Both the position numbers and the translations under genes were made by a program. From a virus (Duplodnaviria; Caudoviricetes): a stretch of 54,480 bases of DNA. This document shows, piece after piece, positions 188 through 54,313 of the stretch. Location of the stretch: positions 1 to 54,480 of the IMG/VR virus record IMGVR_UViG_3300042923_000175; one strand, given 5' to 3'. Each line of letters opens with the position of its first letter. Position 1 is the stretch's first letter. The notes under the pieces are model-generated. The model did not search any database. It worked only from the letters and a program-made list of their open reading frames with translations, and was not told the origin of the DNA.

Positions 188-424
188 TTAATTTGCATAA
201 ACTTTTTTATAAATATTTTGGAAATCATACTTGATTATCTCATCTATTGCTCTTTCAGTTTCAGATTCGTTTTCTTCATCACTTAATTGTTCAGAAGTTT
301 TTGCAATTCTTCCCAACAATCCACAAGTGTTGTAACCTTTAGTGACATCGTACACGAACCATTGGTTGAACTCATCTTGAGGATCATATGGATTATCTAT
401 GGTGGTCAATAGTGCTTTAGCCAT
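188..424 (-). CDS. Small acidic protein translationally coupled to the RNAP gene
   Basis: 78 aa ORF, start overlaps RNAP stop (TAATG), GGAGG SD. Confidence 0.8.
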   Translation of the reverse strand: MAKALLTTIDNPYDPQDEFNQWFVYDVTKGYNTCGLLGRIAKTSEQLSDEENESETERAIDEIIKYDFQNIYKKVYAN

Positions 425-3144
425 TAACTTAATCCTCCTTTCATATAGTTTACAACGGTCGATGTTGATACACCTAAAGCTTTAGCTATCTCAGCAGTAC
501 TATAACCTGACTTGGACATAGCGTTTATCTTGTTAACCTTAGCAGTTGATAGGGCTGTGGTTGATCTAGGTGTAGCCTTCTGTCTTAGTACATCTATGTC
601 AGCATTGTTTATTATCTGTTGCAACTTAGCTTCGCTTATAGCACCAGCTTGAATAGCTTCCCATTCCTTGTCTGTTATCTTTACCAACTCTCTTTTAGCT
701 CCGACTTGGTTTCTAGCAGCAGTCAATGCTTGTTGACTTACCTTCTTTAACTCTCCTTTAGTCATGTCTGGATACTCTTGTTTCTTGGCTTTTATTACAG
801 TGTTAGCTATTACTTGTGCTCGTCTTTCTCTTGGGGCATTCTTAAGAGAGACATTCAGTTTAGCATTTAAAGAATTGACTTCGTTTTTATAATCATTTTT
901 TGCAGTCGCCGAATACTGTATCTTTCCAGTTGACACCATTTCTTTTCTTGCTTGGTTTGCTAAAGACTTCATCTTATTAGCGTAATCAGCATATGCTTCT
1001 TCTTGTGGGGTTCCGCTTGATAATGTACGAGCATCTTTAGTCTCAAACATTTTACTAGACTTTTGTGTTCTTACTTTAGTTTTACCTGAAGCATCAGTGT
1101 ATTCTTGATAATCTTCTTTCCAAGTTTGTTCTCCAGTAGCTGGATCTATAATAGGAGAACCTTTTCGTTTGATAACTTGAGTCTCCGATTTAGCTCTAGA
1201 TAATAAAGTTGAAGCACCACCTGAATGCCACTTCCCTTGATCATCATAATGTCCTTGGTATTTATTCTTTAATGCTGCTATATTGTTATCAACTTCTGAT
1301 TGTTTATAATTAAGTATATGCTTTTCAGCATCTATAACAACCATAGAATGTTTAACAGCCTTTGCTAGTTCATCTTCAGATGCACCTTTTAAAGTCATAT
1401 CGGTTATAAGATTAGAGATCTTACCCATTTCGGTTTGAGTATTCTTCATTCTTCTAAACTCTGTGCCATCAGCAGTATAATAATGTTCAATTCCATCAAG
1501 ATCTTTCTTTGATGTTGCATATTTATATGACTTACTATCAAATCCTTCTAAGCCTTTTAATGGATTAGTAGAAGTTATCTTAACATTCTTACCTGTCGGT
1601 ATAGTTAATACGGTATCCCCATCAAAATCAGCTCCACTTAATCTTTCAGCTACTTTACTAGTTATACCAACGGCATCTTGAGCATTAGAGCCTATAGTAT
1701 TCTTACCATCTTTGTTTTTATTATTAACAGTAAGCACTGGTATTTCAAAAGTGCCTCCATGAGGAAACCTTACTAAGGCAAGTTGTTCTCCATTTTCATA
1801 ATTAGGAGCATATATCTCGTTATCTTTTAATGAATTTATAGGTAATATTACATGATACTTCTGTCTAGGTAAAGCTGCTGCTTGTAGATGAACAGCTGCC
1901 GAATCGCAATCATCAGAAAAGGTTTTTAATAAGGCTTTCTTGACCGTAGGATTGTTTAAAGATTTTATTTCATCAAATTCTGATTGCTTTTCATTCTCAG
2001 ATAAAGATAGTTGTTTCTTAATTAAAGAGAGATTCTGTTTAGCTAGGAATTGAGCTGGTAATTTATCTTTCCATTCAGTCCAGTCACCTTCTTCAGCTCT
2101 CTTGTTTATTAATGATAACTTCTTTTCACCATTTTTATCGGTGTAGTACGATTGTCCACCGGCCTTTATTAGAGAACCAAATGGATTATCCGGATCATCT
2201 TTTATTGGTTTTAAAACTTTTTCCATAGGAGTCCCTGACGGTTTATTAGTATTAAATCTAACATCTACTCCTTTTGGTAAATCGTCAGAATATACTGCCA
2301 TACCTTTAAGATAATGCTTACCGTCAACCATTACTCTTACTTGAGCATAATTTGAATTACCTAATGATAAGTCTTTAACTCCTCTTCGTAATTCGATTAC
2401 TCCATCTTTATCTACTCCACCTTTATCTCCATAATTTATTTCCAAACGTTTACTATCTAAACTAGTTGGGTAATGGAAAGTATCAAAGGTTTCTCCTCCA
2501 TCTCTAGATACATAATTACCTATAGAATTTATTTTAGAGTAATCATAGATATCTTTATGTTCAGTCCCAGGAGGACCTATAACTTTTAAATTAGTTTGTT
2601 GGCCTTTATTGGTAGCTTGAGATATGCCAGCCCCATAAGTTGGGTACCCTTGTAATTCTAAAATATAAAGAGCTTGATTAAGTTTCTCTTTTGAAATTCC
2701 TAATTCTCTTTCTACTCCAGTACCAACATCTATTAAACCTTTTTCATCTATTTGCTTTTTTAAGAAATCAGCAGTTTTAGATGCTTGGTTCATTCTTTCT
2801 TCACTATTTTCATCTAACAATGTTCTAACTGAAGAGTCATTATTAAAACCCATTTGATTAGCTATTTCAGATAACGAATATCCTTTTTCTCTTAAACCTT
2901 TAGCAGTAGCTACATCCAAAGATCTACGTTCTGCTTTAGCTAATGATTTTTGAACTCTAAGTTGAGTAGTGGTTAAACCCATAGTTTCCGCTATGTCTTT
3001 TTCACTCATACCACTTTTTGAAAGTTCTTCTACTCTACTCATAAAGTCTCCACTATGCTGATATGGATCTTTCCCAGAACCCCAGGGATATCTTCCTGAA
3101 CGTTTTGGCATACCATAATGTTCTATAAAATCGTTGTCATTCAT
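424..3144 (-). CDS. Single-chain two-barrel (YonO-like) DNA-dependent RNA polymerase with terminal HTH domains
   Basis: LSGADFDGD catalytic motif, upstream RFPH motif, HTH-like segments at N-term (GMSEKDIAETMG, GYSLSEIANQMG) and C-term (GYSTAEIAKALGVSTSTV). Confidence 0.88.
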   Translation of the reverse strand: MNDNDFIEHYGMPKRSGRYPWGSGKDPYQHSGDFMSRVEELSKSGMSEKDIAETMGLTTTQLRVQKSLAKAERRSLDVATAKGLREKGYSLSEIANQMGFNNDSSVRTLLDENSEERMNQASKTADFLKKQIDEKGLIDVGTGVERELGISKEKLNQALYILELQGYPTYGAGISQATNKGQQTNLKVIGPPGTEHKDIYDYSKINSIGNYVSRDGGETFDTFHYPTSLDSKRLEINYGDKGGVDKDGVIELRRGVKDLSLGNSNYAQVRVMVDGKHYLKGMAVYSDDLPKGVDVRFNTNKPSGTPMEKVLKPIKDDPDNPFGSLIKAGGQSYYTDKNGEKKLSLINKRAEEGDWTEWKDKLPAQFLAKQNLSLIKKQLSLSENEKQSEFDEIKSLNNPTVKKALLKTFSDDCDSAAVHLQAAALPRQKYHVILPINSLKDNEIYAPNYENGEQLALVRFPHGGTFEIPVLTVNNKNKDGKNTIGSNAQDAVGITSKVAERLSGADFDGDTVLTIPTGKNVKITSTNPLKGLEGFDSKSYKYATSKKDLDGIEHYYTADGTEFRRMKNTQTEMGKISNLITDMTLKGASEDELAKAVKHSMVVIDAEKHILNYKQSEVDNNIAALKNKYQGHYDDQGKWHSGGASTLLSRAKSETQVIKRKGSPIIDPATGEQTWKEDYQEYTDASGKTKVRTQKSSKMFETKDARTLSSGTPQEEAYADYANKMKSLANQARKEMVSTGKIQYSATAKNDYKNEVNSLNAKLNVSLKNAPRERRAQVIANTVIKAKKQEYPDMTKGELKKVSQQALTAARNQVGAKRELVKITDKEWEAIQAGAISEAKLQQIINNADIDVLRQKATPRSTTALSTAKVNKINAMSKSGYSTAEIAKALGVSTSTVVNYMKGGLS

Positions 3145-5300: not shown

Positions 5301-5330
5301 AAAAAGAAGAGACAAAGTCTCCTCAATCCT
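5301..5330 (-). terminator. Cassette terminator
   Basis: GAGAC-TTT-GTCTC-TTCTTTTT. Confidence 0.6.
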
Positions 5331-6009: not shown

Positions 6010-6022
6010 AATTATCACACTC

Positions 6023-6049
6023 CTCATAATATACCATGTATAACTAGCG
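6023..6049 (-). promoter_or_regulatory. Phage promoter motif copy 3
   Basis: CGC-N6-TACA-N5-TATTATGAG. Confidence 0.7.
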
Positions 6050-24141: not shown

Positions 24142-24864
24142 TTAATTGATAGGTACTACATCATAATCTAACACTAAACATGGAACATCATTCTCAGCAA
24201 TTGTAGATGAAAACGACGGTTCTAATTCACCTTCATCAATATGCCAACCAACCTCGCATCCTATTTTTATAGCTGATAGACCTATTTCTGAATAGAAATC
24301 ATTCAAGTCCATTGACATCTCACTTCTAAGTCTTTTATTTATCCAATTGGCGGCTCTCTCGATATCATTGACGCTGCTCTTAAAATATCTTCCAGACATA
24401 TTATCGTATATTAATACATCACCCTTTGAAGTCACTGTAACTTCTTTATTACTAATAGGATCTCTTCTTAATTTTTCCGCTGCAACTTCTCTTTTTATTT
24501 CTTCATATTTTTCAGGATCTACAATATCTCTAACCTTTTCTTTGTAAGTTTTAAACGCTGTTTCACTAACTGTATAAGCAGTTGTTATTGCAGCTATCTT
24601 ATTATTGGTTATATTTCTAGAACATATTATCTGTGCAATACCCAAGCCTGTTAATAGAACAGATGGTATATACAATGGTGTTATAGTCTTAACCTTTTCA
24701 ATGGCCTTATCTTCTTTTTTCTTTTCCATCAACTTGACTGCCTTGGGTGTCTGTCTAATTGCTAATGCTCCACCGCCTAATATACAAGCAACTCCACCTA
24801 CTAATAATAAATCAGATGCATTTTTAGTTAATATATTTTTTACATTTTTACTATATGAATTCAT
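24142..24864 (-). CDS. Membrane-anchored paralog family member 3 (DUF6353-like)
   Basis: Two TMs, TPKA, YIP, YDNMSGRYFKS, LNDFYSEIGL, VGW. Confidence 0.8.
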   Translation of the reverse strand: MNSYSKNVKNILTKNASDLLLVGGVACILGGGALAIRQTPKAVKLMEKKKEDKAIEKVKTITPLYIPSVLLTGLGIAQIICSRNITNNKIAAITTAYTVSETAFKTYKEKVRDIVDPEKYEEIKREVAAEKLRRDPISNKEVTVTSKGDVLIYDNMSGRYFKSSVNDIERAANWINKRLRSEMSMDLNDFYSEIGLSAIKIGCEVGWHIDEGELEPSFSSTIAENDVPCLVLDYDVVPIN

Positions 24865-25430: not shown

Positions 25431-26156
25431 TTATGAAAACATATCATAATTTACTATTGGTTGATTCGAGTAATTTAGATGATAATATTCACAACCATCA
25501 TCGTCCTCCATTTTACTATGTTCGAAGTCGACCCATGGACTAGTTGTGGATGCTCCATAATATCCATCATATACTGACCAACCAAGATATTCTCCAGCTT
25601 CAGTTTGTTTTATTCCTAGCATTTTATAAAAGTCATTTAATGTAGCATGACCGACTATAGATAATTGTTTGTTAAACATATATTCGGCTTTAAGTACGTT
25701 GTCTATGGTACTAGTAAAGAACTTACAGGTATATTCTTCATAGAATATCTTTTCCCCGGTTCGTTCTATATAAATATCTTTTGGTACGTTTTGTTTAACT
25801 GCTTTCTTTAATATTTCATCTCTAGTTTGAGAATTAGTATTCTCGTCTACACTATTCCTTAGACTACTATATCTATTTTGCACTGCTATTAATGCATTTA
25901 ATAGGGATATCTTTTGATTCATAGTTGTGTAGTCAGAATAGATTATACAAAGCATAGTACTTAAGGCTACTGTTCCTGATGGAATATAACACTTCCAAGT
26001 TTTCTTTATTTTTTCTCTATTATTCATTTTTTCGTCTATTAATTTACACGCCTTAGTAGTATCTTTTATTGCCGTAGCCATCGTTAAGCCAACCCCAACT
26101 ACTGCTGCAAAATTTAATATAAATTGTTTATCCTTTCTTATAAATTTACTTACCAT
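25431..26156 (-). CDS. Membrane-anchored paralog family member 4 (DUF6353-like)
   Basis: TTKA, WKCYIP, FYEEYTCKFFTS, LNDFYKMLGI, LGW; AGGAGG SD before MVSK. Confidence 0.8.
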   Translation of the reverse strand: MVSKFIRKDKQFILNFAAVVGVGLTMATAIKDTTKACKLIDEKMNNREKIKKTWKCYIPSGTVALSTMLCIIYSDYTTMNQKISLLNALIAVQNRYSSLRNSVDENTNSQTRDEILKKAVKQNVPKDIYIERTGEKIFYEEYTCKFFTSTIDNVLKAEYMFNKQLSIVGHATLNDFYKMLGIKQTEAGEYLGWSVYDGYYGASTTSPWVDFEHSKMEDDDGCEYYHLNYSNQPIVNYDMFS

Positions 26157-26157
26157 T

Positions 26158-26367
26158 TTATTTACCTCCTGATATAGAGAATGAAAATGGTTTATCATAC
26201 GAGTCGATTATCTCTTTAGTGGTTTCAATAGATAAAAAATATCCATTTGTAACTTCTATACACCCAACTATAACTCCTATAATTTCTCCTGAACGAGTTA
26301 CGGGTTTATTAATATAATGGTCAATTTTACCCATTTTTGGAATCGTAGTATTATAGTAATATTTCAT
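26158..26367 (-). CDS. Hypothetical protein
   Basis: 69 aa, AGGAGG SD; loosely similar to 10859-11056 (KPV...GE.IG.IV). Confidence 0.7.
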   Translation of the reverse strand: MKYYYNTTIPKMGKIDHYINKPVTRSGEIIGVIVGCIEVTNGYFLSIETTKEIIDSYDKPFSFSISGGK

Positions 26368-37929: not shown

Positions 37930-40900
37930 ATTCCTCCCACCATCCTTCCACTTATCTTATTTTTATTACCTAACAAATTATCAACGTCATCAATTATATA
38001 TTCAGCAATAGCTCTTCCATTTTGCAATACTAATTGTAAATTTATTGGTTGTTTATTGACTTTATCTGCAATTGGCGAATTATTCTTTGTGTCAGTCTCT
38101 ACATTAGGGTTCGATAATAATTGTCTATTACTTATGCCCTTAGCTGTTTGATTAACAGTGTTTATTGAACCATTAATGTTATAATCGTCTAAATTATCCA
38201 TCATACCATATAGTTGTTTTGCTCCATTTTGAATATTAGATAGATCTATAACAGGAGTTATAACTGGTTGAGAATCAATACCTCCAGACACTATATCTGA
38301 TATGTTAGATATAGCATTCGACATCCCGGATATCGCGCTTGAACCCATATTTGATCCAGCATCTGATACTTTACTTGTATACTTGTGTAGCATGTTTATA
38401 TATCCTAGTGCTGAGAATTTACCTAGTTCTCCAAATTTCCTTGAAGGTGAATGTATATCTAATGCTTTTTTAGCTGCTGCTAGAGCGGATCTTCCTAAAT
38501 CTCCAGCTGCTGCCGCTAATTCTCCAGGAATACTAGTAAGACCTTGTATAAAGCCTTTAACGGCATATACTCCGGCATCTACAAATTTACTACCTAGAGC
38601 CCCTATACCGTCGACTATTGCAGTTACTAAATTATAACAAGCATCCGCTATTGCTCCTGAATTATTTCTAATACCATCGGCCAATCCATTTATGAATGTT
38701 ATAATTAAATTGAAAGCCGCTTCTATTATCTTAGGTAAGTTATCGCTAATCCCGTTTATGAATGCAACCATTATATCTGCAGCGGCTGTTACAAATTTAG
38801 GAACGTTGTCAGCTAGTATTTTCAACATAGCTAATACTATATCTAATACTTTTTGGGTTATTGTTGGAACCCATTTAATTATTGCATCTAAAACCCCAGA
38901 TAAGGTCTGCAAAACACCATCCACTATTTTTGGTATATTTGTAACTATACAGTCTATTATAGCGCCTATTATTGTAGTTATGCATTGTAAAATCTGAGGT
39001 ATGCTATCAGTAAACACTTTAATGAATGCTAATATACCTTCTCCTATTTTTTCCATTATCTGTGGAATTAGTGCCGCCACTCCAGTTATAATAATTCCTA
39101 AAGCTGCAACTACTGCTGTCGCACCTGCAGCGGTTGTTCCGGCTAACAATGTGAACCCAGTAGCTATACCAGTAAGACCAACTCCAACTAGCGCTAATCC
39201 AGCGCCTATACCAAGCATTGATATACCTAATAATGTCATAGCTCCTGCTAAACCTATCATACTAGGTATTATAGGGGTTAATAGTGCTGCAGACACGCCA
39301 AATATAGTTATAGTTGCAGCTAGATCAACTAGGCCTTTCACTATACTCTCCCAACTCATAGCTCCTAATAAAGTTAAAGCGGGAGCTAACATAGCTAACG
39401 CTGATGAGGCTACTAATAACGCTGCTGAACCAGCTAATGAACCAGTCATAGCGTTTAGTCCAATCGCTAATATACCTAATGCTCCACCTAAAGTCACTAA
39501 ACCTTTTGCTATCTCATCCCAAGTCATACCACCCATACTAGATAAGGCCTTCGCTAATATATTTAGCGCGGCTCCTACTATGACTAGACCCGCTGACTTT
39601 GCAATTAAATCGCTAGGTAATAAATTAACAGCTACCGTTATTTCAGTCAAGGCCCCAGCCATAACTATTAATCCTTTTGCTATTGATTCCCATGACATAT
39701 TACCAAAGTCATTCATAGCCGAAGCTAATATTTTCATTGCTCCAGATATTGCTATTAACGCCAATCCTGTTGATATTACACTTTTAGCATTTCCAGTAAG
39801 ATTAGTAAATGCCGATAATTCAGTTAATAAAACTCCTATGCTAACTAAACCTTTACCTATCTCGGACCATGATAAATTCCCAAAATCAGAACATGCAGAT
39901 GCTAATATTTTCATTGCTCCAGCTAGTAATACTATTCCTGCAGCAGTTGTTATTGATTTGCTACTAAATTTAGCAGTGTTTAAGAACAATGAAATTTCAG
40001 TCATTAAACCACCGACACCTACTAATCCTTTAGCTAAACCATTCCAATCTAATTTAGATAAATCTGTGCATGCTGATGCTAATATTTTTATAGCTAAAGC
40101 AAAGGTTATCATACCGGTTGAGCCTTTTATCATATCAGTACTTCCAGATGATAAAATTTTAGAAGACGTAACTAATACGGTAGATATCCCTACTAATCCG
40201 ACTAAGCCTTTTGCTAGACCGTTCCAATCTAATTCTGACAATTTTTTCATAGCACTTGATAGTATCAATATTGATGTTGACATAGCTAACATAACCAAAC
40301 TAGCCTTCGTTACTTTCCCTTTGAAATCTCCTATCATACTATATAATTTCATCGCCACTAATAATTGACCAAATAAAGTTCCTATTGCTGCTAATGAACT
40401 CACTAATTTATCTGAGTCTATCAATGATATAGATACTATTGATGCTGATAATAAAGCCACAGCAGCTGCTATTTTGAGTAGTATACTTGCTTTTAAATTT
40501 TGTTGCCATGTTTCTAAACTTCCTCTAACACTATCTAAGATTGATGATACATTTCCTAGTACGCCTTTAGCGCTTTCTAGTGGATCAGATAAACTTTTAA
40601 GGAACTTATTAACTGCTAGCACCATTCCACCTATTGATGCTGCTCCTATAGCATCAAACAAACCAGTAAAATTAGAATTACTTAAGGCTTTGCTTATTGT
40701 GGACACCATTCCTTCTACTAATTTGCCAATTGCTTCACCTATTTTAGATACAGTATCCCAAATAGATTTAAATATCTCTCCTATTTTACTATCAGCTATA
40801 GATTTACCCATAGTTACAAAAGCCCCACCAACAGTAGTTGCCATATTAGTAGATTCATTACCTATACTCGACATCCTATTTCCTAATACTTCCAAGAATG

Positions 40901-46085: not shown

Positions 46086-47846
46086 CTAAGCAGAAACATA
46101 TGATTCAACAGCAATAGCTGAGAAAGGTTTAATTAATGCACCTGAGCATCTAGTTTCTATTAAGTATTTTTGAGCATTGTAATCGATATCGAAATCATCA
46201 AACATATTTACTGCTCCGCCCTTATCAGCACCTATATTATAGTCTGTAAGGTTTACTATTAACCCATTTAAAGTAAGAGTTTTAGTGTCTACAACTCTAG
46301 TTTGACCTTCCATAGCAGGAATTGTAATTATATCAGCAACCCTTAATTTTGATTTTAATTTGTCAACGCTATCATATATGTCTCTACCAGTAGTATCTTT
46401 TATTAAAAGCATACTTGTTAACATATCTTCAGTTGTGTATAATGATGGTTGGCCAGATCCTTTATAATTCTTTCTTGATTTTATTGCAGCTTCGATGAAT
46501 GCATTTGCTTTATCACCATCTGTAGTTAAACCTTTAATGTCATAAGAAGCCTGAACAGTGTATAGAGCTTCATCTTTCCAGATAGGTCTAATGTTCAATT
46601 CATTAATCTTATCATCACTTGAATTAGGTCTTCCATCTCCAATTAATATAGCTCTTGCAATTTCTTCATTAAGCATCATTCTCATTTCAGTCTTTAACCA
46701 AGCTACTACATCAAAGTCAGTTATATCTACAACATCATCTCTATCAAGTTTTTGTTTTTTGTATATTGTAGTTGGACTAGTAGTTCTCTTTAATAATGAG
46801 AATACTTCTTCCTTTTTAAGATTACCTTTAATATAACCTTTAGCTCTTGCATCGTCTTCAGTTATGTCTGCATAAGTTGATTTGATTCTAGAGAAAGGAG
46901 TATGATGAACTGCTGCTAACACCCCATCAACCCAAGTATTTTCTCTTTGAATAAACCCTGGAACATCAGTCACATTTTTATAATCTGGGAATAAGTAATC
47001 TATATTTTCAATACCATGAGCTAACACAGAATCTTTTAAACTTCCATATCTTTTACCGTCTGCTAATATTTCTTGAATCTCACTGTGTGATAATACGTCT
47101 CCTTGATCTTTACCTTCACCTTTATTAAATACATTATGTTTCATTTCTTCTCCACCTTTACCTTTATTTTTTATTGCACTTTGTGACATCTCATCTTTGG
47201 TTTCACTTACTACCTCATCAACAGCAGCCCCAACCATAGCATATACTACATTTTTTTGTTCTTCAGTTAAAGTGTCAAACACCTCCTGTATTGTTTTTCC
47301 TTTATTATCTTCTGGTGCTGGATCGTCTTTCTTTGTTTTATTAGGATCTACCTTCTTATCCATTTCGGCCCCTTTCTTATCTTCTTTTTTATCGGCATGA
47401 TATAGTTCTATTTCTTCTCCGGTGAATAGAACACCTTCTTCATCTCTTATTTGACCATGAACTATAACATCATCTATAAAGGCACCGGGATTAGCTCCAG
47501 CTAAAACAAGTGATACCTCCCTTATTTGACCATGCATAACAAATGCACCTTGCTTTTTTAATTGATTAGCATATATTGATAACGCTACTATATCACCATG
47601 TTCGACCATGTTTTTCGCATTTTGAGCTGATGGAGTAGTGTTAAATGAGCAATAGGCATAAACACCTTCGTCTCTATTCTCAAGCATAGCATGTCCTAAA
47701 ACATTATTGGGATCGTTATGGTCGTGGTTCCATACTAATGGCACAGTTGCCCCACTATTATGTTTGAACGCATCCTTAACTATGGTTAAGCCATCTGAAC
47801 ATTTTAAATCATTCTTTGTGGCCCAACCGCTAAAATCATATTTCAT
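46086..47846 (-). CDS. Prohead protease-scaffold-major capsid fusion (HK97 fold)
   Basis: FSGWA, PLVWNH.H, LSI.A, REVSLV..GANP.A protease; C-terminal ~350 aa capsid domain. Confidence 0.9.
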   Translation of the reverse strand: MKYDFSGWATKNDLKCSDGLTIVKDAFKHNSGATVPLVWNHDHNDPNNVLGHAMLENRDEGVYAYCSFNTTPSAQNAKNMVEHGDIVALSIYANQLKKQGAFVMHGQIREVSLVLAGANPGAFIDDVIVHGQIRDEEGVLFTGEEIELYHADKKEDKKGAEMDKKVDPNKTKKDDPAPEDNKGKTIQEVFDTLTEEQKNVVYAMVGAAVDEVVSETKDEMSQSAIKNKGKGGEEMKHNVFNKGEGKDQGDVLSHSEIQEILADGKRYGSLKDSVLAHGIENIDYLFPDYKNVTDVPGFIQRENTWVDGVLAAVHHTPFSRIKSTYADITEDDARAKGYIKGNLKKEEVFSLLKRTTSPTTIYKKQKLDRDDVVDITDFDVVAWLKTEMRMMLNEEIARAILIGDGRPNSSDDKINELNIRPIWKDEALYTVQASYDIKGLTTDGDKANAFIEAAIKSRKNYKGSGQPSLYTTEDMLTSMLLIKDTTGRDIYDSVDKLKSKLRVADIITIPAMEGQTRVVDTKTLTLNGLIVNLTDYNIGADKGGAVNMFDDFDIDYNAQKYLIETRCSGALIKPFSAIAVESYVSA

Positions 47847-47848
47847 TA

Positions 47849-48727
47849 TTAGTCCTCCTTACTTTTCTTTCGCCCTCTTTTAGACGTTGAATTTCCTGAT
47901 TTACTTTTTCTACCCTTTTTAGGAGCAGTATATTGTGATTTTATTTTGTCATACTCATCCTGATAAACATCTTCATATGAAGAATTTAATGATTTTTTAT
48001 TTTCCGAATACATTTCTCTAGCTGCCTTTATAGCATTTTTTAATTCCCCGGCGACCTGAGTTCTTTCAGTTTTTGCTTCTTCAACATTTTTACTAGATTG
48101 ATTTTTTTTATCGGTTGAGAGTTTTTCTCGCTTAGTTGAAGTGTCTTCTCTAACATCTTCTATTTTATTACTATATTCATCTTTTAAATCTTCTATATCA
48201 GAACTAGAATTTTTATTTACACTATCTTTTTTATTCTTCTTTTCATCAGCTGATAAACTATCATCGTCATTTATTTTCTTAATTTTTCTTTCCTTTGTAT
48301 TTTGTATCTGTTCCTGATCTTGTTTTCTTTCTCTAGCTATAGCGTCTAATTGTTGCTTTTGAGCTTTAGATAGTCCTTCAGAGTCAGTTTTATACTTAGA
48401 ACTTAATGCTTCGCTTAACGCTTTAAGTTTATTGGTGATCGACGTTCTGGTAGCCTCAGCTTTGGTTCTGGCGTTTTCTATATCTATTTCCTTCTGTTTT
48501 GCGTATTCATCGATACGATTCTTTTTCTCGCTAGTTATATTATTTTTAGTAGATGTCCATATCTCTTTACCTTCATCAGTTAGACCACTAGTAGTTCTAC
48601 CCTTTAAATTACGATTTTGCATGTAATACTCATGAGCTTTTTCAGGGTCATAGTATTGAGATGCGTAATGTTTTAATTCTTGATTATCTATAATATCAAA
48701 CAAGTGTTGTATATAATCATGATCCAT
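47849..48727 (-). CDS. Charged coiled-coil protein, candidate internal head protein
   Basis: Between portal and capsid; ELKHY motif; basic tail. Confidence 0.7.
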   Translation of the reverse strand: MDHDYIQHLFDIIDNQELKHYASQYYDPEKAHEYYMQNRNLKGRTTSGLTDEGKEIWTSTKNNITSEKKNRIDEYAKQKEIDIENARTKAEATRTSITNKLKALSEALSSKYKTDSEGLSKAQKQQLDAIARERKQDQEQIQNTKERKIKKINDDDSLSADEKKNKKDSVNKNSSSDIEDLKDEYSNKIEDVREDTSTKREKLSTDKKNQSSKNVEEAKTERTQVAGELKNAIKAAREMYSENKKSLNSSYEDVYQDEYDKIKSQYTAPKKGRKSKSGNSTSKRGRKKSKED

Positions 48728-50054
48728 TGGAATCACCACCAGATACATTTTGAATTATCTTATCTATTTCGCCTTCCAAAGAATCCATAACGTCATTGAA
48801 TATTTTATCTATCTGAGCGTTAACATCCACATTGTTATCGGTTTGAGTTGGGATTGGATTATTATTTGAATCAGGTTGTGGCATGTTAGGATTTTGTAAC
48901 TGATCGGCCTTAGGGTCGGTTGATGGTTGCATACCTATAGCCCCTCTTATCTCATTGGAAGATGCTACTTGATTTCTAATAAATTTATCTGCTATTTCAG
49001 CTAGATTATCAAGGGTTAACATTCTAAAAGGATCCCTAAAGTATTCAATAGAATGACCCTGGGTTCTTGCAGTTTTACTTAAAAACTTCCTCTTCATTTC
49101 GTCGCATATAGCAGCCAATATTGGTTCTACGGTTCTGTTGTAATAGTTCAACATAGTTTTTTCATCAGCTGTCCCATCCAATACACTAGTAGTTATACCC
49201 AACTGGCTATATAGCATACTCGTTAGATATTCTATTTGTGACATTAGATTGTTTTCAACTGGTCTATTTAACTGAGTTATTTTTTCAGTACCATCTATAT
49301 ATCCAATACCGTATTTAGATCCAGATAATTGATCTTCTAAGTCTTTTTTTCTCTTTTCTGCTTCTCTACGTCTAGCATCTGTTTTTATTACATATGGTAA
49401 CTGAATCACCATGTCTAATTTACCAGATGAACTCTGATTATCAACGCTATCCAATAATACTAATTTACGAATTAATCTTTGAAGTGTACTGTTAGGTTCA
49501 TTTATTACAGCATATAATGGATTCTCTATAATACCAATAGTACTTTTAGCCAGTTTTACATCCTCATTAAGTCCAGTCTTGTCATTGTATAGTTCGACTA
49601 GAACATGATCGGGATACCATTCCTTTATCTTTCCAACCCTCATAGTTTCAATATCGACGCTAGCACTATCATTAGGATCTATATTGGTATCTACTGGAAC
49701 TATTGCTATACATCCTTCATCTAGTAATGATAAAACCACATCCTGTATGAAGGCCCTCCCAGTTTGGTCTTTATTAGCCTCAAGAGTTATACAATTATTA
49801 AGATCCGAATTAACATATGATAAGAATCTTCCATTTTCATCTACTTTGCAATGACTTATGTTTATCGCTGCTACATCCATAGATATTCTATTAAATACGG
49901 ATGTGGCTATTGATCGTTCGTTACCTCTTGATAGTCTAGGTCTATCTGGTCTATAGGAACTACTATATCCTCCCGTATATTTATAATTTTCAGTTGGGTC
50001 TCTGTTAGTAAATGCATTCCAAGCATGTTGTAGTCTATCTTTTAAACCCATCAC
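48717..50054 (-). CDS. Portal protein
   Basis: Follows TerL; NRI..DVA, AN.DQT...F, YY.RTVEP, SNEIR. Confidence 0.88.
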   Translation of the reverse strand: MMGLKDRLQHAWNAFTNRDPTENYKYTGGYSSSYRPDRPRLSRGNERSIATSVFNRISMDVAAINISHCKVDENGRFLSYVNSDLNNCITLEANKDQTGRAFIQDVVLSLLDEGCIAIVPVDTNIDPNDSASVDIETMRVGKIKEWYPDHVLVELYNDKTGLNEDVKLAKSTIGIIENPLYAVINEPNSTLQRLIRKLVLLDSVDNQSSSGKLDMVIQLPYVIKTDARRREAEKRKKDLEDQLSGSKYGIGYIDGTEKITQLNRPVENNLMSQIEYLTSMLYSQLGITTSVLDGTADEKTMLNYYNRTVEPILAAICDEMKRKFLSKTARTQGHSIEYFRDPFRMLTLDNLAEIADKFIRNQVASSNEIRGAIGMQPSTDPKADQLQNPNMPQPDSNNNPIPTQTDNNVDVNAQIDKIFNDVMDSLEGEIDKIIQNVSGGDSNGS

Positions 50055-50066
50055 TCACTCTCCCTT

Positions 50067-51812
50067 CTAGAAAGCATCTTTATTATTTGTATAAGCTACA
50101 AAAGCATCCATCATTGCTGATACACAGTCTATTTTCTGCTCGTTTCTTTTTTTCAAAAGTTTTCTATTACCATTTGTGTCTTCTAATGTTATACAATTAC
50201 CCATAGTGAACGACATTAATTCTTCATCAAATAATAACATTCTTTCTTCACTTAAATGTTTTAAATCACCTAGAGGAACAGTTTCAGTCTTAGCCCCTTG
50301 TATAACCTTAACTATTCCAAATGCACCATTCTCAGTTTCCCATCGTTCAACAAAATGTTTGGCATTATAAGGATCATAACCAAAACATCTAACATCGTAC
50401 CCCATATCAACTATGTGATTGTCTAAATCATCATATACTTCATCTATATCAAGTACGGTTCCTTCTAATACTATGAGTGAACCCTCGTCAATAAATTGGT
50501 CATATTTAAATCTCATTGCCGATGGTAATTTTGATAAAGTGAGAGATGTTATATAGGCCCGTGTCTTTATTCCAAAATTGCCATCATTAAATGGAAACAT
50601 AAATGTGAATGCACAGAAATCATCACCTTGTGATAAATCTCCACCCATAGAACATGGTAATTGCCAGAAATCCCGTTTACGATGAGGTATAGTTTCTTCA
50701 TAGGTGAAATAATATGTGTACCCTTCCATGGGTATACCGAAACGTTTAGCTAGTATATCATTCCTAGCGGCAGGCGCATTTTCGGCTCGTTCAACATCAA
50801 GTTGATATGTCTCATAAGATACAGTTTTACCTAAATTAGGGTTCGCCTTTGGCCATAAATCTGGATTATTAATCTCATCGACATTATCAAGTCTATAATA
50901 CCAAATGCTAACATGAGGGTTTATATAATCACCCTTTAGTATATCCATAAGTTCCATTTTAATAGTATCACCTGCACCATTACGAACAGTACCTTCAGAA
51001 CTTATAGCTACTATTAACCAGTCATCTACCTTTGATGCCCCTTGCTCTAACGAACCAACAACATCCTCTCTAATATCTCCAGATAGCCATTCATCGACTG
51101 TAGATATTTTGGGCCTCAACCCTTGAAGTTTATTTATAGACATTGGCTTTATTTCTAATAGCGAACCAGTAAGAAAATTTTCAACACCCTTTTTAGTAGC
51201 ACATAATTTTTGTCTATTAGCTCTACTACCAGTTGTATTTTGTAGCGATCCTTCAGTTAGAAATTTATATAATGGACCTCTACTTTGTATTATAGCAGTT
51301 CTTATTGGGGACATAACTTCTTCTGCTTGCTTCATAGTGGGGGCGGTTGTTATTTGATGGGTCGTCGAAGTATCTACATTCAAGAAATAGTTTTGTATAC
51401 ATGAACCATACATCGATTTCGCAGCCCCTCTAGCTACTATTAGATATTGTTTATTTATCAGTCTTTTTTTAATCCTACGTTTCTCATATCGACCAGCTCC
51501 ATGTCCATTTTCACTAGGAACATAAATGCTTTTCTCAACAAAGTAATACCAGCCGAATATTTGTTCAGCCCACAATTTAAAGGTATCTAATAATTGCATT
51601 GGGGAACCATCTGTTAATGTTAATTCCTCATTACAATATAATATAAATCCTTCAACCGCCTCATCGTCATAGTAGATCCCAGGATTATCTATCAATTCGT
51701 CTATGCGGTTCATCTCCATAGCAATTTCTTTACACACCGGTATTTCTCCACGTATCACAGATTCTCTAAATTGTCCATAGTAAATGGGAACCGCAGTATT
51801 ACTCAGTGTCAT
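50067..51812 (-). CDS. Terminase large subunit
   Basis: VARGAAKS Walker A, VDEW, ISSEG, GGDLSQGDD, YDPYNA, KIDCVSAMMDA. Confidence 0.93.
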   Translation of the reverse strand: MTLSNTAVPIYYGQFRESVIRGEIPVCKEIAMEMNRIDELIDNPGIYYDDEAVEGFILYCNEELTLTDGSPMQLLDTFKLWAEQIFGWYYFVEKSIYVPSENGHGAGRYEKRRIKKRLINKQYLIVARGAAKSMYGSCIQNYFLNVDTSTTHQITTAPTMKQAEEVMSPIRTAIIQSRGPLYKFLTEGSLQNTTGSRANRQKLCATKKGVENFLTGSLLEIKPMSINKLQGLRPKISTVDEWLSGDIREDVVGSLEQGASKVDDWLIVAISSEGTVRNGAGDTIKMELMDILKGDYINPHVSIWYYRLDNVDEINNPDLWPKANPNLGKTVSYETYQLDVERAENAPAARNDILAKRFGIPMEGYTYYFTYEETIPHRKRDFWQLPCSMGGDLSQGDDFCAFTFMFPFNDGNFGIKTRAYITSLTLSKLPSAMRFKYDQFIDEGSLIVLEGTVLDIDEVYDDLDNHIVDMGYDVRCFGYDPYNAKHFVERWETENGAFGIVKVIQGAKTETVPLGDLKHLSEERMLLFDEELMSFTMGNCITLEDTNGNRKLLKKRNEQKIDCVSAMMDAFVAYTNNKDAF

Positions 51813-51825
51813 TCGGGATCACCTA

Positions 51826-52317
51826 CTAACCTTTCAATTTTCTTACAGTATCATATAACATAGCAGCACTTGATGCTACAGCTAATGTAGCCCCCGCAGT
51901 GGATAATATACCTTCTACTTTACTTCTTCCTGATTGTTGTTGTTTAGCATTTATATAATTATTCTCTAGATTCAATCGGTTAGTCAATTGTTTTAAATCA
52001 TCATCGCTTAAATTCTTAGCCTCTTTAAGTGTCTTTTTATTGAACCCGCCTTTATTGACAGCTTGTCCTAAAGATGTGAGATCCTGCCCAGTTTTAGCAG
52101 CCTTACTAACTACATTTGCATTTATTGATTTATGGTGCCCCCACTTCATTCCTTTTATTCCAAAGTGAGCTAAAGCAGCGCCTCTATTTCTAGTGACTAT
52201 TTTTAATGCTTGATGTTCTATAGTATCATTATCTAAATCTATAGTATCATTATCTAAATCTATAGTATCCTCGAAACTACCCATTCTTTCTATAAAATTT
52301 TTATAATCTTTATCCAT
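51826..52317 (-). CDS. HxGxKGMKWG-motif protein, candidate internal virion protein
   Basis: LAHFGIKGMKWG; LSDDDLK....RL.LE..Y; C-terminal amphipathic/TM helix. Confidence 0.75.
   Translation of the reverse strand: MDKDYKNFIERMGSFEDTIDLDNDTIDLDNDTIEHQALKIVTRNRGAALAHFGIKGMKWGHHKSINANVVSKAAKTGQDLTSLGQAVNKGGFNKKTLKEAKNLSDDDLKQLTNRLNLENNYINAKQQQSGRSKVEGILSTAGATLAVASSAAMLYDTVRKLKG
52217..52269 (-). repeat. Perfect 21-bp tandem repeat x2.5 (DTIDLDN)
   Basis: tctatagtatcattatctaaa repeated in frame. Confidence 0.9.
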
Positions 52318-52333
52318 TTTAATCACCTCGCTT

Positions 52334-53233
52334 TTAAGTAGCATCTACAGTTATAGCAAACATTTTACGTTCTTTATCATACTCTAATTTTCTATAAGTT
52401 AATTTATTAGGAGCCAATATTGCTTCCTGATTACTTCTCGTATTAACAAGAGCTTTACCGTCATTTGTTTTACCATCTGCTAATAAACCAGGAGTGCCTT
52501 TACAGTTTATAATCATATACGTATTATAAGTTGAAGCAGCAGTAGGGTTTACAGCTCTCCATGTATCTATAGCGAATAATGGCGACGTACTCGTAGAAAA
52601 GACTCTATTTTCTTTAGCTGATTTACCTGAAAAGTTCTTTGATAATTTGGAGAACATTTCCTCTTTTTCTGTATCGCTCATTGTATCTAATTTCTTAGCT
52701 AAACCATTCATTGAAAATTTCATGTTACAACTACGATAAACCGTTTGATCGTTAACTGAATTTTTTTGAAGCGTTGTTTTAAGCTTTTCAGCTTCTTTTG
52801 CATAATTCTTAGGGTCGCCTATCGCTAAATATCCATTCACACTTCTTGAATATCTAGCTGAATCGGTGTACGTTTTAAGATTTTTTAAATCGTTGGGGTT
52901 TAAGTTATCATATACCGCATTTTTATGTGCAGCTATACCAACGCTTTCTATAGCTTTTAGAGCATTTTTATTGTTTGGTAACACCCCTGTTTTAGCAGTA
53001 GATTCTTTTGTCAAATCTGCTAATAATTTAATATCATCATTAACTTTGTTTACTACTTTACGGGCTTTGTACTTTAATTCCCTAGGGTTTAACTTAGCCC
53101 CTATTTCATAAGCTTTCCTTTCAGCAAGAGTTGCTATTCTGTTAGCAGACGTTTTTATTTGTACTTTATGATGGCCCCATTTCATTCCTTTTACACCGAA
53201 ATGATAAAGTTCATCATTGTATACTGGTCTCAT
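52334..53233 (-). CDS. ADP-ribosyltransferase (R-S-E / VIP2-like) with N-terminal HxGxKGMKWG motif
   Basis: YT....Y...VNGYL; VYRS; FSTSTS; NQEAIL. Confidence 0.72.
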   Translation of the reverse strand: MRPVYNDELYHFGVKGMKWGHHKVQIKTSANRIATLAERKAYEIGAKLNPRELKYKARKVVNKVNDDIKLLADLTKESTAKTGVLPNNKNALKAIESVGIAAHKNAVYDNLNPNDLKNLKTYTDSARYSRSVNGYLAIGDPKNYAKEAEKLKTTLQKNSVNDQTVYRSCNMKFSMNGLAKKLDTMSDTEKEEMFSKLSKNFSGKSAKENRVFSTSTSPLFAIDTWRAVNPTAASTYNTYMIINCKGTPGLLADGKTNDGKALVNTRSNQEAILAPNKLTYRKLEYDKERKMFAITVDAT

Positions 53234-53234
53234 T

Positions 53235-53597
53235 TTACACCTCCAGATTATTAGTTTCTACTGCCAACATCATTCTCCATCCTAGTTCATCAATGCTTTT
53301 ATTTATAGCATCTATAGTTGTTGAATTTGTTGGTGGATCGAATATTAATTTAATCTTAAGGTATAAATAGGTTTTAACACCCTCTAAATTTATAGTGCTA
53401 CTATCGATATAGTCAATCCATTTGTCATCCGCCGATGTTACTATAAACCCATTCTTGGGACCTATCCCCATCTGTGATAGATTTGGAATTGTTGAATTTA
53501 TGTGTATTAGTATATCATTATCGAAACTAATATCGTCAGGATCTATACCTAATAACTTTTTAATAGAGTTTAATATACTACTTTCCAAGTGGATCAC
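53235..53597 (-). CDS. Head-tail adaptor
   Basis: SIL.SIKK.LG......FD.DI..HINS....L.Q.G.G; LK.KL.FDPP. Confidence 0.7.
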   Translation of the reverse strand: MIHLESSILNSIKKLLGIDPDDISFDNDILIHINSTIPNLSQMGIGPKNGFIVTSADDKWIDYIDSSTINLEGVKTYLYLKIKLIFDPPTNSTTIDAINKSIDELGWRMMLAVETNNLEV

Positions 53598-53601
53598 CTC
53601 C

Positions 53602-54015
53602 TTATCTTTTCCAAGGACAAGTATCGCCTCTGTATCTTTCAGTTATTATATTAGGGGACTTATTACCATAATGTATTGCATTATGGGTGTTCAAACAAGT
53701 AGTTATTAGGTAGTTAGGGTTTAATAAATAATCAGTGTCGTTTAAAAGATCATCTCTTGATATTGGGTTCATATGATGTATTATTATTTTCTTATAGATT
53801 TCATATCCATCAACACCAAGGTCGCATCCTAGATCTCTAACTATTATTTCGTCTCTTCTTCTAAGCCATATTGGAGATTTATAAAACACTTGATTTAGGT
53901 ATCTATCAAATCCAAATGTTAAATCTGACACTCTGCCATTCAATTTTAAATATTCATACCTTTCATCAAATGTTTTAATAGTTCTTAATTCGTTATACGT
54001 CCGAATTATTGCCAC
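53602..54015 (-). CDS. HNH endonuclease (packaging-associated)
   Basis: FY.S..W...R..II.RD..C; IHH.NPI; L...NLIT.C..THN.IH. Confidence 0.85.
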   Translation of the reverse strand: MAIIRTYNELRTIKTFDERYEYLKLNGRVSDLTFGFDRYLNQVFYKSPIWLRRRDEIIVRDLGCDLGVDGYEIYKKIIIHHMNPISRDDLLNDTDYLLNPNYLITTCLNTHNAIHYGNKSPNIITERYRGDTCPWKR

Positions 54016-54313
54016 TGTATTTCCTCATAGCTGCTAAAGCATTAGTGTATAATTCTTCTATTACTTTACCAGATTTAATAGCTTCGGTTTTAGCGGTTAT
54101 TAAATCTAAGTTCTTTTTAAGTGTTTCTTTCTCCAACATGTTTGTAGTTGACCCTAGTTTTAGGAAGTGTGATATTACTTGGGACGATGCGGTTCCCTCT
54201 CTTAACTGTTTTTCGGCCAAATCTATGGCCAAAGAAATCAATTGATTTTCTCTAGACTCAGGGGTCAAACCGGGTCTAGACTTTGTAATGCCTTTACCAG
54301 TCTTCTTGGCCAT
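53993..54313 (-). CDS. Putative terminase small subunit
   Basis: First gene after candidate cos; helical 106 aa; positional inference. Confidence 0.5.
   Translation of the reverse strand: MAKKTGKGITKSRPGLTPESRENQLISLAIDLAEKQLREGTASSQVISHFLKLGSTTNMLEKETLKKNLDLITAKTEAIKSGKVIEELYTNALAAMRKYSGNNSDV

Follow-up and report, generated by a model that had tools for sequence, protein, structure and literature searches.

The prohead protease of phage T4 has the consensus (L/I)xE, and Alt is processed by this enzyme, gp21. In phiKZ and SPN3US, the prohead protease consensus is S/A/G-x-E. Virion-packaged RNA polymerases, such as N4 vRNAP and gp66 of crAss-like phages, are made late, injected, and start early transcription. 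Encapsulin cargo-loading peptides are usually C-terminal and uncleaved, and act without a protease. The MuF (SPP1 gp7-like) carriers of temperate phages, encoded by portal-adjacent genes, are folded portal-binding domains of ~100-300 aa with head-internal cargo that includes ADP-ribosyltransferase toxins. We know of no cargo loading in HK97. PMC3012670 describes the capsid-targeting sequence (CTS) of the T4 internal proteins; PMC5694885 and PMC7411985 place virion RNA polymerase subunits among the processed proteins of phiKZ and SPN3US, and a preprint (10.1101/842583) assigns a protein of phages 1706 and FP_oengus to the two-barrel / RdRP-like RNA polymerase class.

The window, i.e. the whole stretch of DNA analysed here (54,480 nucleotides), represents the complete genome, about 54.5 kb in length, of a siphophage from the lineage of Lactococcus phage 1706, Faecalibacterium phage FP_oengus and actinophages (Arthrobacter, Gordonia, Streptomyces and Rhodococcus phages). 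This lineage is very large: its capsid fusions form more than 8000 clusters at 90% identity, and about 230 of its members, actinophages and lactococcal phages together, are in culture. All motif-bearing genes of the window are on the minus strand. An earlier note had proposed that an (L/I)xH motif, common to the capsid precursor and several other proteins, marks packaged cargo for a His-specific protease; every string quoted there is found in the program translations of the window. The motif was not found in the literature searched.

We consider the following mechanism probable. The S78-type protease domain would cleave after His in hydrophobic-x-His sequences (P3 Leu, Ile or Met; P1 His), and cuts at four spacer sites would remove the protease and a scaffold-like part, leaving a 309-residue HK97-fold capsid protein that starts at Gly278. 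E-L-x-H, continued by an aromatic residue and a short stretch of Gly, Trp and basic residues, constitutes a portable tag, borne by the phage's own YonO-like RNA polymerase and by unrelated proteins whose genes surround those of the terminase and the portal. Tagged proteins would enter the procapsid, be trimmed at the His, and leave with the DNA; the delivered RNA polymerase could start transcription, and the delivered ADP-ribosyltransferase could modify a host target. Cleavage after His, the role of the tag as a loading signal, and injection are each steps that we infer.

Protease, spacer and capsid form a single chain encoded by the ORF 46086-47846:

47472..47846, minus strand: prohead protease domain of the Peptidase S78 family, residues 1-125; Pfam PF04586 at 21.9 bits (cut-off 21)
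47010..47471, minus strand: spacer or scaffold-like region (residues 126-279), which holds the four conserved hydrophobic-x-His islands
47457-47459, minus strand: spacer site 1, VIVH130 then G; His in 151/151 representatives
47397-47399, minus strand: spacer site 2, ELYH150 then A; His in 138/151 representatives
47085-47087, minus strand: spacer site 3, VLSH254 then S; His in 135/151 representatives
47016-47018, minus strand: spacer site 4, VLAH277 then G; His in 141/151 representatives
46089..47015, minus strand: HK97-fold major capsid domain, residues 278-586; Pfam PF05065; predicted mature protein of 309 aa

The representatives are distant relatives of the capsid fusion clustered at 50% identity. 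The protease domain (AF2 pLDDT 84-93) is assigned to Peptidase S78 by the family profile and by a His and a Ser in register with HK97 gp4: in the profile alignment (E 4e-11), H41 pairs with H65 and S90 with S114, which we take to be the catalytic residues of gp4. H41 is invariant in all 151 representatives, and both H41 and S90 in a 31-sequence alignment (A1). The capsid domain scores exactly at the PF05065 cut-off (24.2 bits), and its HK97 fold is matched over the whole domain. VIA-align superimposes residues 104..383 of the HK97 mature capsid (1ohg_A) on residues 274..584 of the model (Z 16.4, rmsd 5.8, 264 aligned), and the first ordered residues of the HK97, D3, T5, DT57C, GTA and Mycofy1 capsids map to model residues 271-279. 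H277/G278, the proposed cut site, falls where processed HK97-fold capsids start. The HK97 capsid protein is cut between K103 and S104 (TFNK103 then S104 in the sequence that we checked); the presumed H277|G278 cut is at the same position, with a hydrophobic P3 in both (TFNK|S, VLAH|G). The window has the protease family and the capsid fold of HK97 gp4/gp5 delta-domain maturation, but it differs in joining protease, spacer and capsid in one chain, in P1 His instead of Lys, and in having four conserved sites. The spacer is mostly disordered in the AF2 model (pLDDT < 50 at residues 128-185 and 213-250); two of its sites are in stretches with pLDDT < 50, and the other two at helix ends. In the 151 representatives the columns around the four His residues vary, and the sites have a hydrophobic P3 and a small P1'.

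The hydrophobic-x-His opening recurs in four other proteins of the window:

53165..53221, minus strand: class A tag (DUF7211) at the N-terminus of a predicted ADP-ribosyltransferase (ART), residues 5-23, His11; Pfam PF23847, 35.3 bits
52334..53164, minus strand: predicted ART payload; PF03496 covers residues 107-218, and the motifs YRS, STS and QEAIL are conserved
52126..52176, minus strand: class A tag (DUF7211) inside the 172-aa ORF 51826-52344, residues 57-73, His60; Pfam, 34.7 bits
48611..48685, minus strand: class C tag of a 299-aa Lys/Glu-rich protein (47849-48748), NQELKH27 then YASQYYDPEKAHEYY
3055..3138, minus strand: class B tag at the N-terminus of a YonO-like RNA polymerase (424-3144), DFIEH9 then YGMPKRSGRYPWGSGKDPYQH
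424..3054, minus strand: body of the YonO-like single-subunit RNA polymerase, with a DFDGD motif and C-terminal HTH families; phrog_4291

Both class A tags exceed the gathering score (27 bits) of the 25-position DUF7211 model (PF23847), and a genome search placed them at the same positions as the Pfam scan. The tag of the ART ORF (52334-53233) reads ...NDELYH11, then FGVKGMKWG. That of the 172-aa ORF, preceded by 56 residues, reads ...AALAH60, then FGIKGMKWG. The C-terminal end of the 172-aa ORF is a hydrophobic stretch. The ART matches PF03496 (E 1.3e-6, 28.3 bits, cut-off 23.4) over only positions 12-125 of the 196 in the model, and its YRS, STS and QEAIL motifs are retained in six of six aligned homologs. 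Two residues before the Glu of QEAIL stands Asn; in R-S-E ADP-ribosyltransferases the residue two before the catalytic Glu is usually Gln or Glu. The ART had no sequence match in PDB.

The RNA polymerase ORF lies outside 46086..53233, and its DFIEH9 is followed by YGMPKRSGRYPWG. It belongs to the YonO-like two-barrel enzymes by its DFDGD motif and by its match to phrog_4291 (1289 bits, residues 2-902). YonO and crAss gp66 share its two-barrel / RdRP-like class. D.DGD is present in six of six orthologs read, and the class B tag in seven of seven. Neither the polymerase nor the 299-aa protein matches any Pfam family at E<=0.01, DUF7211 included; the N-terminus of the Burley RNA polymerase reaches only 14.6 bits against this family, at model positions 5-13. 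A 12-sequence alignment of class B leaders (A3) aligns with DUF7211 leaders with an hhalign probability of 92.8% (E 4e-7), and therefore class B is a related variant of DUF7211, not a member by the Pfam rule. This class is also found on small non-polymerase ORFs (L036, L037, L040, L041, L058, L062, L071). In the 299-aa protein, NQELKH27 continues as YASQYYDP, and the pattern (E/S)(L/M)xH|Y(A/S/E)SxYYDPxKAHEYY is present in all eight of its database homologs and in L078 and L092. Class C has only the E-L-x-H-Y opening in common with DUF7211. Hence the stretch after the His has three variants: HxGxKGMKWG in DUF7211, HYGxPRRSGRYPWGSG in the polymerase, and YASxYYDPxKAHEYY in class C.

A tripeptide of such low information could recur by chance, as [LIVMF]xH is found 88 times across the 82 minus-strand ORFs of the window, and one further example named in the earlier note, in the portal protein, is poorly conserved:

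50025..50033, minus strand: doubtful site L8-Q9-H10 at the N-terminus of the portal protein (ORF 48717-50054), RLQH then AWNAF

Of 55 distinct portal N-termini only 37 have this His, and the remaining 18 have Asn (9), Lys (4), Arg (3), Gln (1) or Ser (1), so the portal example is not supported in the form given. The recurrence itself is well above chance. In 1000 residue shuffles of the six motif-bearing proteins named above, [LIVMF]xH occurred 9.98 +/- 2.71 times against 22 observed, and [LIVMF]xH[GSA] 2.13 times against 10 observed; not one shuffle reached either count. The six proteins had been chosen post hoc in the earlier note, and the independent test is therefore provided by the comparative data. 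Among all 82 minus-strand ORFs of at least 50 aa, [LIVMF]xH[FYWH][GA] is found four times (shuffle mean 0.15, none reaching 4), namely in the RNA polymerase, the 299-aa ORF, the 172-aa ORF and the ART. As the spacer His residues are conserved among 151 distant representatives and the motif is covered by a Pfam family, a chance likeness is extremely improbable.

Across the lineage, the tag behaves as a portable module on unrelated head-module proteins, and to this extent the proposal of a shared tag stands, its portal example being the weak part. DUF7211 is present in five of five related phage genomes (16 matches, 14 above the cut-off). Regular expressions applied to plus-strand ORFs of 80 IMG/VR loci located 139 canonical and 15 variant tags, of which 153 of 154 lie upstream of the capsid gene (477 kb scanned upstream and 572 kb downstream, plus strand only). 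The search pattern presupposes P1 His and P2' Gly in part; in a recount that dropped the His requirement, all 139 cores had His two residues ahead of the first Gly. P3 is Leu in 120 of 132 tags. The tag His has a median position of residue 15 and is within the first 35 residues in 142 of 154 cases, and the 4 to ~40 residues ahead of it are poorly conserved beyond P5. Most tagged ORFs (128/141) match DUF7211 alone in Pfam; other domains found on them are GNAT, a glutamine-deamidase toxin domain and, in the window, ART, while tagged proteins of actinophages carry 'hydrolase' and 'acetyltransferase' labels. A short N-terminal signal on unrelated proteins encoded with head genes is the arrangement of the T4 CTS (IPI-III and Alt), which gp21 removes from fast-evolving proteins that are packed and injected. 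The likeness extends to a predicted ADP-ribosyltransferase as one of the payloads and, putatively, to a signal that ends in a P3-hydrophobic/P1-specific protease site, as found in the capsid and scaffold proteins too. On the other hand, P1 is His and not Glu, the protease is of the S78 (HK97) type, fused to the capsid, with no separate scaffolding core, and the lineage comprises siphophages of Gram-positive bacteria. The MuF carriers are folded domains, while the presumed carrier in the window is a peptide of 20-25 aa, and MuF families had no match in the ten head-module proteins scanned.

The tag is also found inside larger precursors. Three of 150 distant relatives have a DUF7211 tag at or next to site 2 of their capsid polyprotein (new here). 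In P0209 the order is S78 (5-125), DUF7211 (158-178, E 8e-11) and capsid (519-757), and in P0186 and P0187 the tag is in the spacer, with its His in the column of H150 of the window. Three related loci have portal-tag-cargo fusions (new here): L018 encodes a portal-DUF7211-GNAT fusion, and in L019 and L079 the portal is joined to a protein of the 299-aa type with the class C tag at the junction. These arrangements bear on an explanation that involves no proteolysis, in which DUF7211 is a working module that binds, for example, DNA, the cell wall or the membrane, and the spacer His residues have a scaffold function, e.g. as a pH or metal switch. The tag is indeed rich in basic and aromatic residues (KGMKWGVRR), many of the proteins that bear it are themselves small and basic, the C-terminal end of the 172-aa ORF is hydrophobic, and cargo and capsid sites do not co-vary. 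However, the tag is placed strongly N-terminally or at junctions, its His coincides with spacer site 2 in P0186 and P0187, H277 matches the start of processed HK97-fold capsids, and three distinct downstream motifs have only the E-L-x-H-aromatic opening in common. We thus regard a non-proteolytic role as very unlikely.

The core that the earlier note saw in both cargo and capsid is shared in part. The hydrophobic-x-His opening is the same, and the tag itself occurs in three polyprotein spacers, but the P' side differs. In cargo tags, P1' is His, Tyr, Phe or Trp in 127 of 132 and P2' is Gly, whereas at capsid sites P1' is Gly, Ser, Ala or Asp, with a P2' that is mostly acidic in the first three sites and Ile in the fourth (28/48); a single pocket would therefore need to take both. 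Within genomes, co-variation of cargo and capsid sites was not detected in 48 dereplicated loci (1.60 vs null 1.54 +/- 0.055, p=0.13). The best-conserved half of the tag is C-terminal to the His and extends 10-20 residues past it. This half would thus remain on the cargo after the presumed cut, unlike the removable leader of the T4 kind. This suggests that the tag has a further role beyond loading, because it is kept in polyproteins, where loading requires no signal.

A rival reading makes the tag a docking peptide inside the procapsid, bound either by the protease domain, as a pseudo-substrate, or by the HK97-fold shell, as encapsulin cargo-loading peptides are; the cargo N-terminus would then stay intact and only the capsid spacer would be cleaved. 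In favor of it are the conserved stretch past the His, the aromatic-Gly P1'/P2' of cargo against the small P1' and mostly acidic P2' of the capsid, and the variable length (4 to ~40 residues) and weak conservation past P5 of the sequence before the His. The capsid domain, moreover, has encapsulin shells as structural neighbours (Z 14-16); in encapsulins, a short peptide brings unrelated proteins into an HK97-fold shell. Against docking, the tag is retained at portal-cargo and protease-cargo-capsid junctions, where docking is needless and release requires a cut, and the tag His is invariant (139/139) and follows the Leu-x that is also seen before the spacer His residues. Docking with uncut cargo is accordingly unlikely in our view.

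Returning to loading with trimming, the Leu-x-His common to the tags and to the disposable capsid spacer indicates, at the level of sequence, that tagged proteins are probably loaded in the head and trimmed there. Their packaging is likely because tags are found in capsid polyproteins and in portal-tag-cargo fusions, and because of the annotation of Lactococcus phage 1706. In this phage orf7 carries two tags, and orf75, the ortholog of the RNA polymerase, bears one of class B; the authors' GenBank record EU081845 annotates both as 'structural protein' (new here; an annotation line only). The window enzyme differs from the N4 and crAss polymerases in that the evidence for its packaging is the 1706 annotation plus the tag, in its siphovirus particle, and in its size of ~900 aa. 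PhiKZ and SPN3US process many head and ejection proteins at one consensus site, as the window phage would under the proposed mechanism, but they are myophages with a multisubunit virion RNA polymerase and without DUF7211.

A more specific reading, which we put forward tentatively, is a two-part peptide code. E-L-x-His might represent a new P1-His specificity of an assemblin-fold prohead protease, and the retained second part might serve loading or portal exit, with the YonO-type RNA polymerase packed and injected together with fast-changing effectors. If so, the effector set would include an ADP-ribosyltransferase, a glutamine deamidase, an acetyltransferase and many uncharacterised proteins, cargo could also be supplied in cis within the capsid or portal precursor, and ~25 added residues would suffice to load any protein in these heads.

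In a set of 50,697 phage records, the tag, the protease-capsid fusion and the polymerase turn up in the same genera, a co-occurrence that common descent alone could explain. Two or three tags are present in a single chain in P0123, L022, L067, L070 and L094.

The window, 54,480 bases long with direct terminal repeats, represents a complete virus genome, and its minus strand holds all sizeable ORFs. Its relatives by protein similarity are Lactococcus phage 1706 and Faecalibacterium phage FP_oengus, and by the same measure hundreds of Arthrobacter, Gordonia, Streptomyces, Rhodococcus, Curtobacterium and Microbacterium phages belong to its lineage, which is described in 10.1101/842583. No near-identical DNA was found among cultured phages in the phage collection searched.

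Genes of the window considered in the analysis
53993-54313, minus strand, small ORF, head module
53602-54015, minus strand, ORF without a Pfam match, in the position of the annotated HNH endonuclease of relatives
53235-53597, minus strand, connector protein (PF24829)
52334-53233, minus strand, predicted ADP-ribosyltransferase (ART), head module
51826-52344, minus strand, 172-aa protein, head module
50067-51812, minus strand, large terminase, head module
48717-50054, minus strand, portal, head module
47849-48748, minus strand, 299-aa Lys/Glu-rich protein, head module
46086-47846, minus strand, protease-capsid fusion, head module; tail genes come next
424-3144, minus strand, YonO-like RNA polymerase of 906 aa with a DFDGD loop, last gene

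The portal gene and the 299-aa ORF overlap by 32 nt (48717-48748) in different frames.

The earlier note proposed that a short (L/I)xH motif is shared by the cleavage sites of the capsid precursor and by four proteins loaded into the head: ART, the 172-aa protein, the RNA polymerase and the 299-aa protein, here called cargo proteins. Every string quoted in its support was found in the window translations, and the numbering was checked. In the six named proteins hydrophobic-x-His occurs 22 times, compared with 9.98 +/- 2.71 in residue shuffles, and hydrophobic-x-His-small 10 times, compared with 2.13, the observed counts never being reached by shuffling; the six proteins were picked post hoc, so comparison with relatives is the stronger test. 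The stricter pattern hydrophobic-x-His-aromatic-Gly/Ala occurs four times in the 82 minus-strand ORFs, each time in one of the four proposed cargo proteins. The RLQH of the portal, also claimed as a site, did not hold: His is present in only 37 of 55 relatives, which rules out a required site, and this motif is not counted.

The tag corresponds to the Pfam family DUF7211, which scores over its cut-off both at the N-terminus of ART and at residues 57-73 of the 172-aa ORF. One to five copies were found in each of five related cultured phages (5/5), all flanking terminase and portal genes. The 80 IMG/VR loci fetched via the capsid fusion, scanned for plus-strand ORFs only, yielded 139 tags of the canonical form (H-x-G-x-x-G-x-x-W-G) and 15 of the polymerase type (H-Y-G-x-P-R-R-S-G-R-Y-P-W-G). 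Among these plus-strand ORFs, 153 of the 154 tags lie upstream of the capsid gene, despite more downstream sequence having been scanned. The tag consensus is (D/N)-E-L-(Y/A/M/E)-H-(H/Y/F/W)-G-(V/I)-(K/L)-G-M-K-W-G-V-R-R, and a search without the His condition returned His two residues ahead of the first Gly in 139/139 cores. One sample, biased toward NDELYHFGVKGMKWG by the word index, served for examples only.

The polymerase-type tag was present on all seven polymerase orthologs read (7/7), with His 8-43 residues from the start, and in several loci on small non-polymerase proteins as well. Its profile aligns with that of 71 DUF7211 leaders (hhalign probability 92.8%, E 4e-7) with one four-residue insertion. 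The variant of the 299-aa protein, E-L-x-H-Y-(A/S)-S-x-Y-Y-D-P-x-K-A-H-E-Y-Y, is kept in 8/8 database homologs and in two loci. All three variants share E-L-x-His followed by an aromatic residue. A role as an N-degron, in which a new aromatic N-terminus would serve as a timer, was dropped, P1' being His in 61/132 tags. Our literature searches found no paper on DUF7211 or on the 'KGMKWG' motif, and those for virion proteomics of the window lineage gave nothing usable (P318 was unrelated).

The tag is typically N-terminal: in 142 of the 154 tags its His lies no further than residue 35 of the predicted ORF (median position 15). Pfam assigns DUF7211 to 128 of 141 distinct tagged ORFs and other families to only three, namely one GNAT acetyltransferase and two glutamine-deamidase toxins; annotated tagged proteins of actinophages include 'acetyltransferase' and 'hydrolase'. 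The payloads are thus mutually unrelated and mostly of no assigned family, some being enzyme- or toxin-like, and judging by their sequences this mix is the profile that would be expected of injected effectors. In the window ART the motifs Arg, Ser-Thr-Ser and Glu are conserved, the Pfam match spanning part of the model only, and tblastn found no match to this protein in phages. The papain-fold glutamine-deamidase toxin domain (PF15644) is found in the tagged ORFs L055:3781-4734 and L066:2688-3488. The 501-aa tagged protein P0123 carries DUF7211 three times (with the core Gly at positions 10, 337 and 430) and by its sequence could be likened to a string of cargo units. In the 172-aa ORF, the 56 residues ahead of the tag contain tandemly repeated sequence (two copies of DTIDLDN followed by DTIEH), and the hydrophobic stretch GILSTAGATLAVASSAAMLY at the C-terminus is a possible membrane helix.

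The N-terminal 125 residues of the protease-capsid fusion form an S78 protease, in which H41 and S90 align with H65 and S114 of HK97 gp4; H52/S112 was accordingly rejected as the catalytic pair. In the AlphaFold2 model (mean pLDDT 74.9) there are a folded protease (1-125), disordered regions (128-185 and 213-250), and helices (186-220, 254-267 and 270-276); the HK97-fold domain starts at approximately residue 280. We compared the spacer of the window with that of 150 representatives, obtained from 1711 matches by clustering at 50% identity (151 sequences in all). It is variable except for four His islands: H130 is kept in 151/151 sequences, H150 in 138, H254 in 135 and H277 in 141. All four have Leu/Ile/Met/Val/Phe at P3 and Gly/Ser/Ala/Asp at P1', and the same was found in the 80 loci. 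A general catalytic role of H130 was rejected, as HK97 gp4 has no His there and the residue lies just outside the fold, where pLDDT is below 50.

Structural alignment places Ser104, with which the mature HK97 capsid protein begins, at model residue 274, and in other processed capsids the ordered part begins at positions equivalent to residues 271-279, so that a cut at H277↓G278 would be the equivalent of K103↓S104 in HK97. Such a cut would leave a capsid protein of 309 residues. The T4 protease recognizes (L/I)-x-E and herpesvirus assemblin (V/L)-x-A↓S, both with a hydrophobic P3 and a specific P1, and the HK97 site T-F-N-K↓S has the same two features; by analogy with these three, hydrophobic-x-His would fit the habit of the protease fold. 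PDB sequence searches with the fusion and ART gave chance-level matches only, and Foldseek found no close solved relative (identities 8-18%).

In 3 of the 150 representatives the canonical tag is found inside the capsid polyprotein, right after the protease domain. The fusion P0209 consists of S78 (5-125), DUF7211 (158-178, E 8e-11), an insert of ~340 residues and the capsid domain (519-757). P0186 and P0187 have the same build, and since their tag His falls in the alignment column of window H150, the tag in these proteins is spacer site 2. The tag also marks the junction in three in-frame portal fusions from related loci, portal-DUF7211-GNAT (L018:1536-3323) and portal joined to a 299-aa-type protein (L019:7196-9448 and L079:403-2637), and two or three tags were seen within single chains. 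On sequence grounds, a signal repeated at every natural polyprotein junction looks like a protease site, and HK97-type shell maturation must involve the loss of everything ahead of the capsid N-arm. Cis arrangements need no loading signal, hence the second half of the tag, being retained, must have another function, for example in primed-side recognition by the protease, in exit or in the mature protein itself. Two further fusions, P0267 (945 aa) and P0310 (944 aa), begin with an extension of ~200 residues that precedes the protease domain and has hydrophobic-x-His sites near its end; these extensions may be N-terminal cis cargo.

Evidence for packaging comes from phage 1706, in whose GenBank record by the original authors (EU081845) orf7 and orf75 are labelled 'structural protein'. 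The former bears two tags, and the latter is the RNA polymerase ortholog with the polymerase-type tag. In RefSeq NC_010576.1, orf75 was renamed from 'structural protein' (EU081845.1) to 'RNA-dependent RNA polymerase', so that the reference record no longer points to the polymerase being part of the virion. In four permuted contigs (L031, L044, L051 and L063) the polymerase gene is directly upstream of the head module, a placement that would be consistent with late expression. Among 50,697 phage records, tag, fusion and polymerase occur in the same genera (for example Arthrobacter 95/95/95, Gordonia 55/55/55, Streptomyces 51/54/54), a pattern for which shared descent is as good an explanation as shared function. 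Within genomes, cargo and capsid sites showed no significant co-variation (p=0.13), and the primed side is aromatic-Gly in cargo versus small-acidic in the capsid. Overall, the proposal that a His-specific protease processes both capsid and cargo is partly supported: the tagged proteins are likely to be packaged, and the sequence patterns make cleavage after His plausible.

The arrangement resembles the T4 capsid-targeting sequence and prohead protease gp21, where, according to PMC3012670, a short signal is all that the varied internal proteins have in common. Another likeness is to phiKZ-like phages, whose head proteins are processed. It differs in the P1 residue, the protease family, the fusion of the protease to the capsid, the conserved part after the cut and the phage type.

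Little is understood of how siphophages that infect Gram-positive bacteria load and inject proteins. The 20-25-residue DUF7211 tag gains a concrete, testable role, linking three separately annotated things: the protease-capsid fusion, the orphan YonO-like RNA polymerase and a set of head-module genes annotated as 'hypothetical'. Cultured relatives are available in harmless hosts (Lactococcus lactis, Arthrobacter, Gordonia and Streptomyces). If correct, the proposal would explain self-started transcription by phages of this lineage, define a His-specific prohead protease, make hundreds of small unassigned proteins candidate injected effectors or anti-defence proteins, and offer an easy way to package foreign proteins in phage heads.

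Several other features of the genome were observed. Four DUF6353 paralogs (5329-6027, 21478-22392, 24142-24864 and 25431-26198, minus strand; E 8e-40 to 7e-75) are spread across its non-structural half. The endolysin (28366-29172, minus strand) combines choline-binding repeats at its N-terminus with a lysozyme domain, which hints at a host with choline-bearing cell-wall polymers. A 455-aa ORF (39001-40368, plus strand) is antisense to the 1543-aa tape-measure gene and is most likely not a gene but a by-product of the coding strand, which is repetitive and rich in Ala/Gly/Leu.
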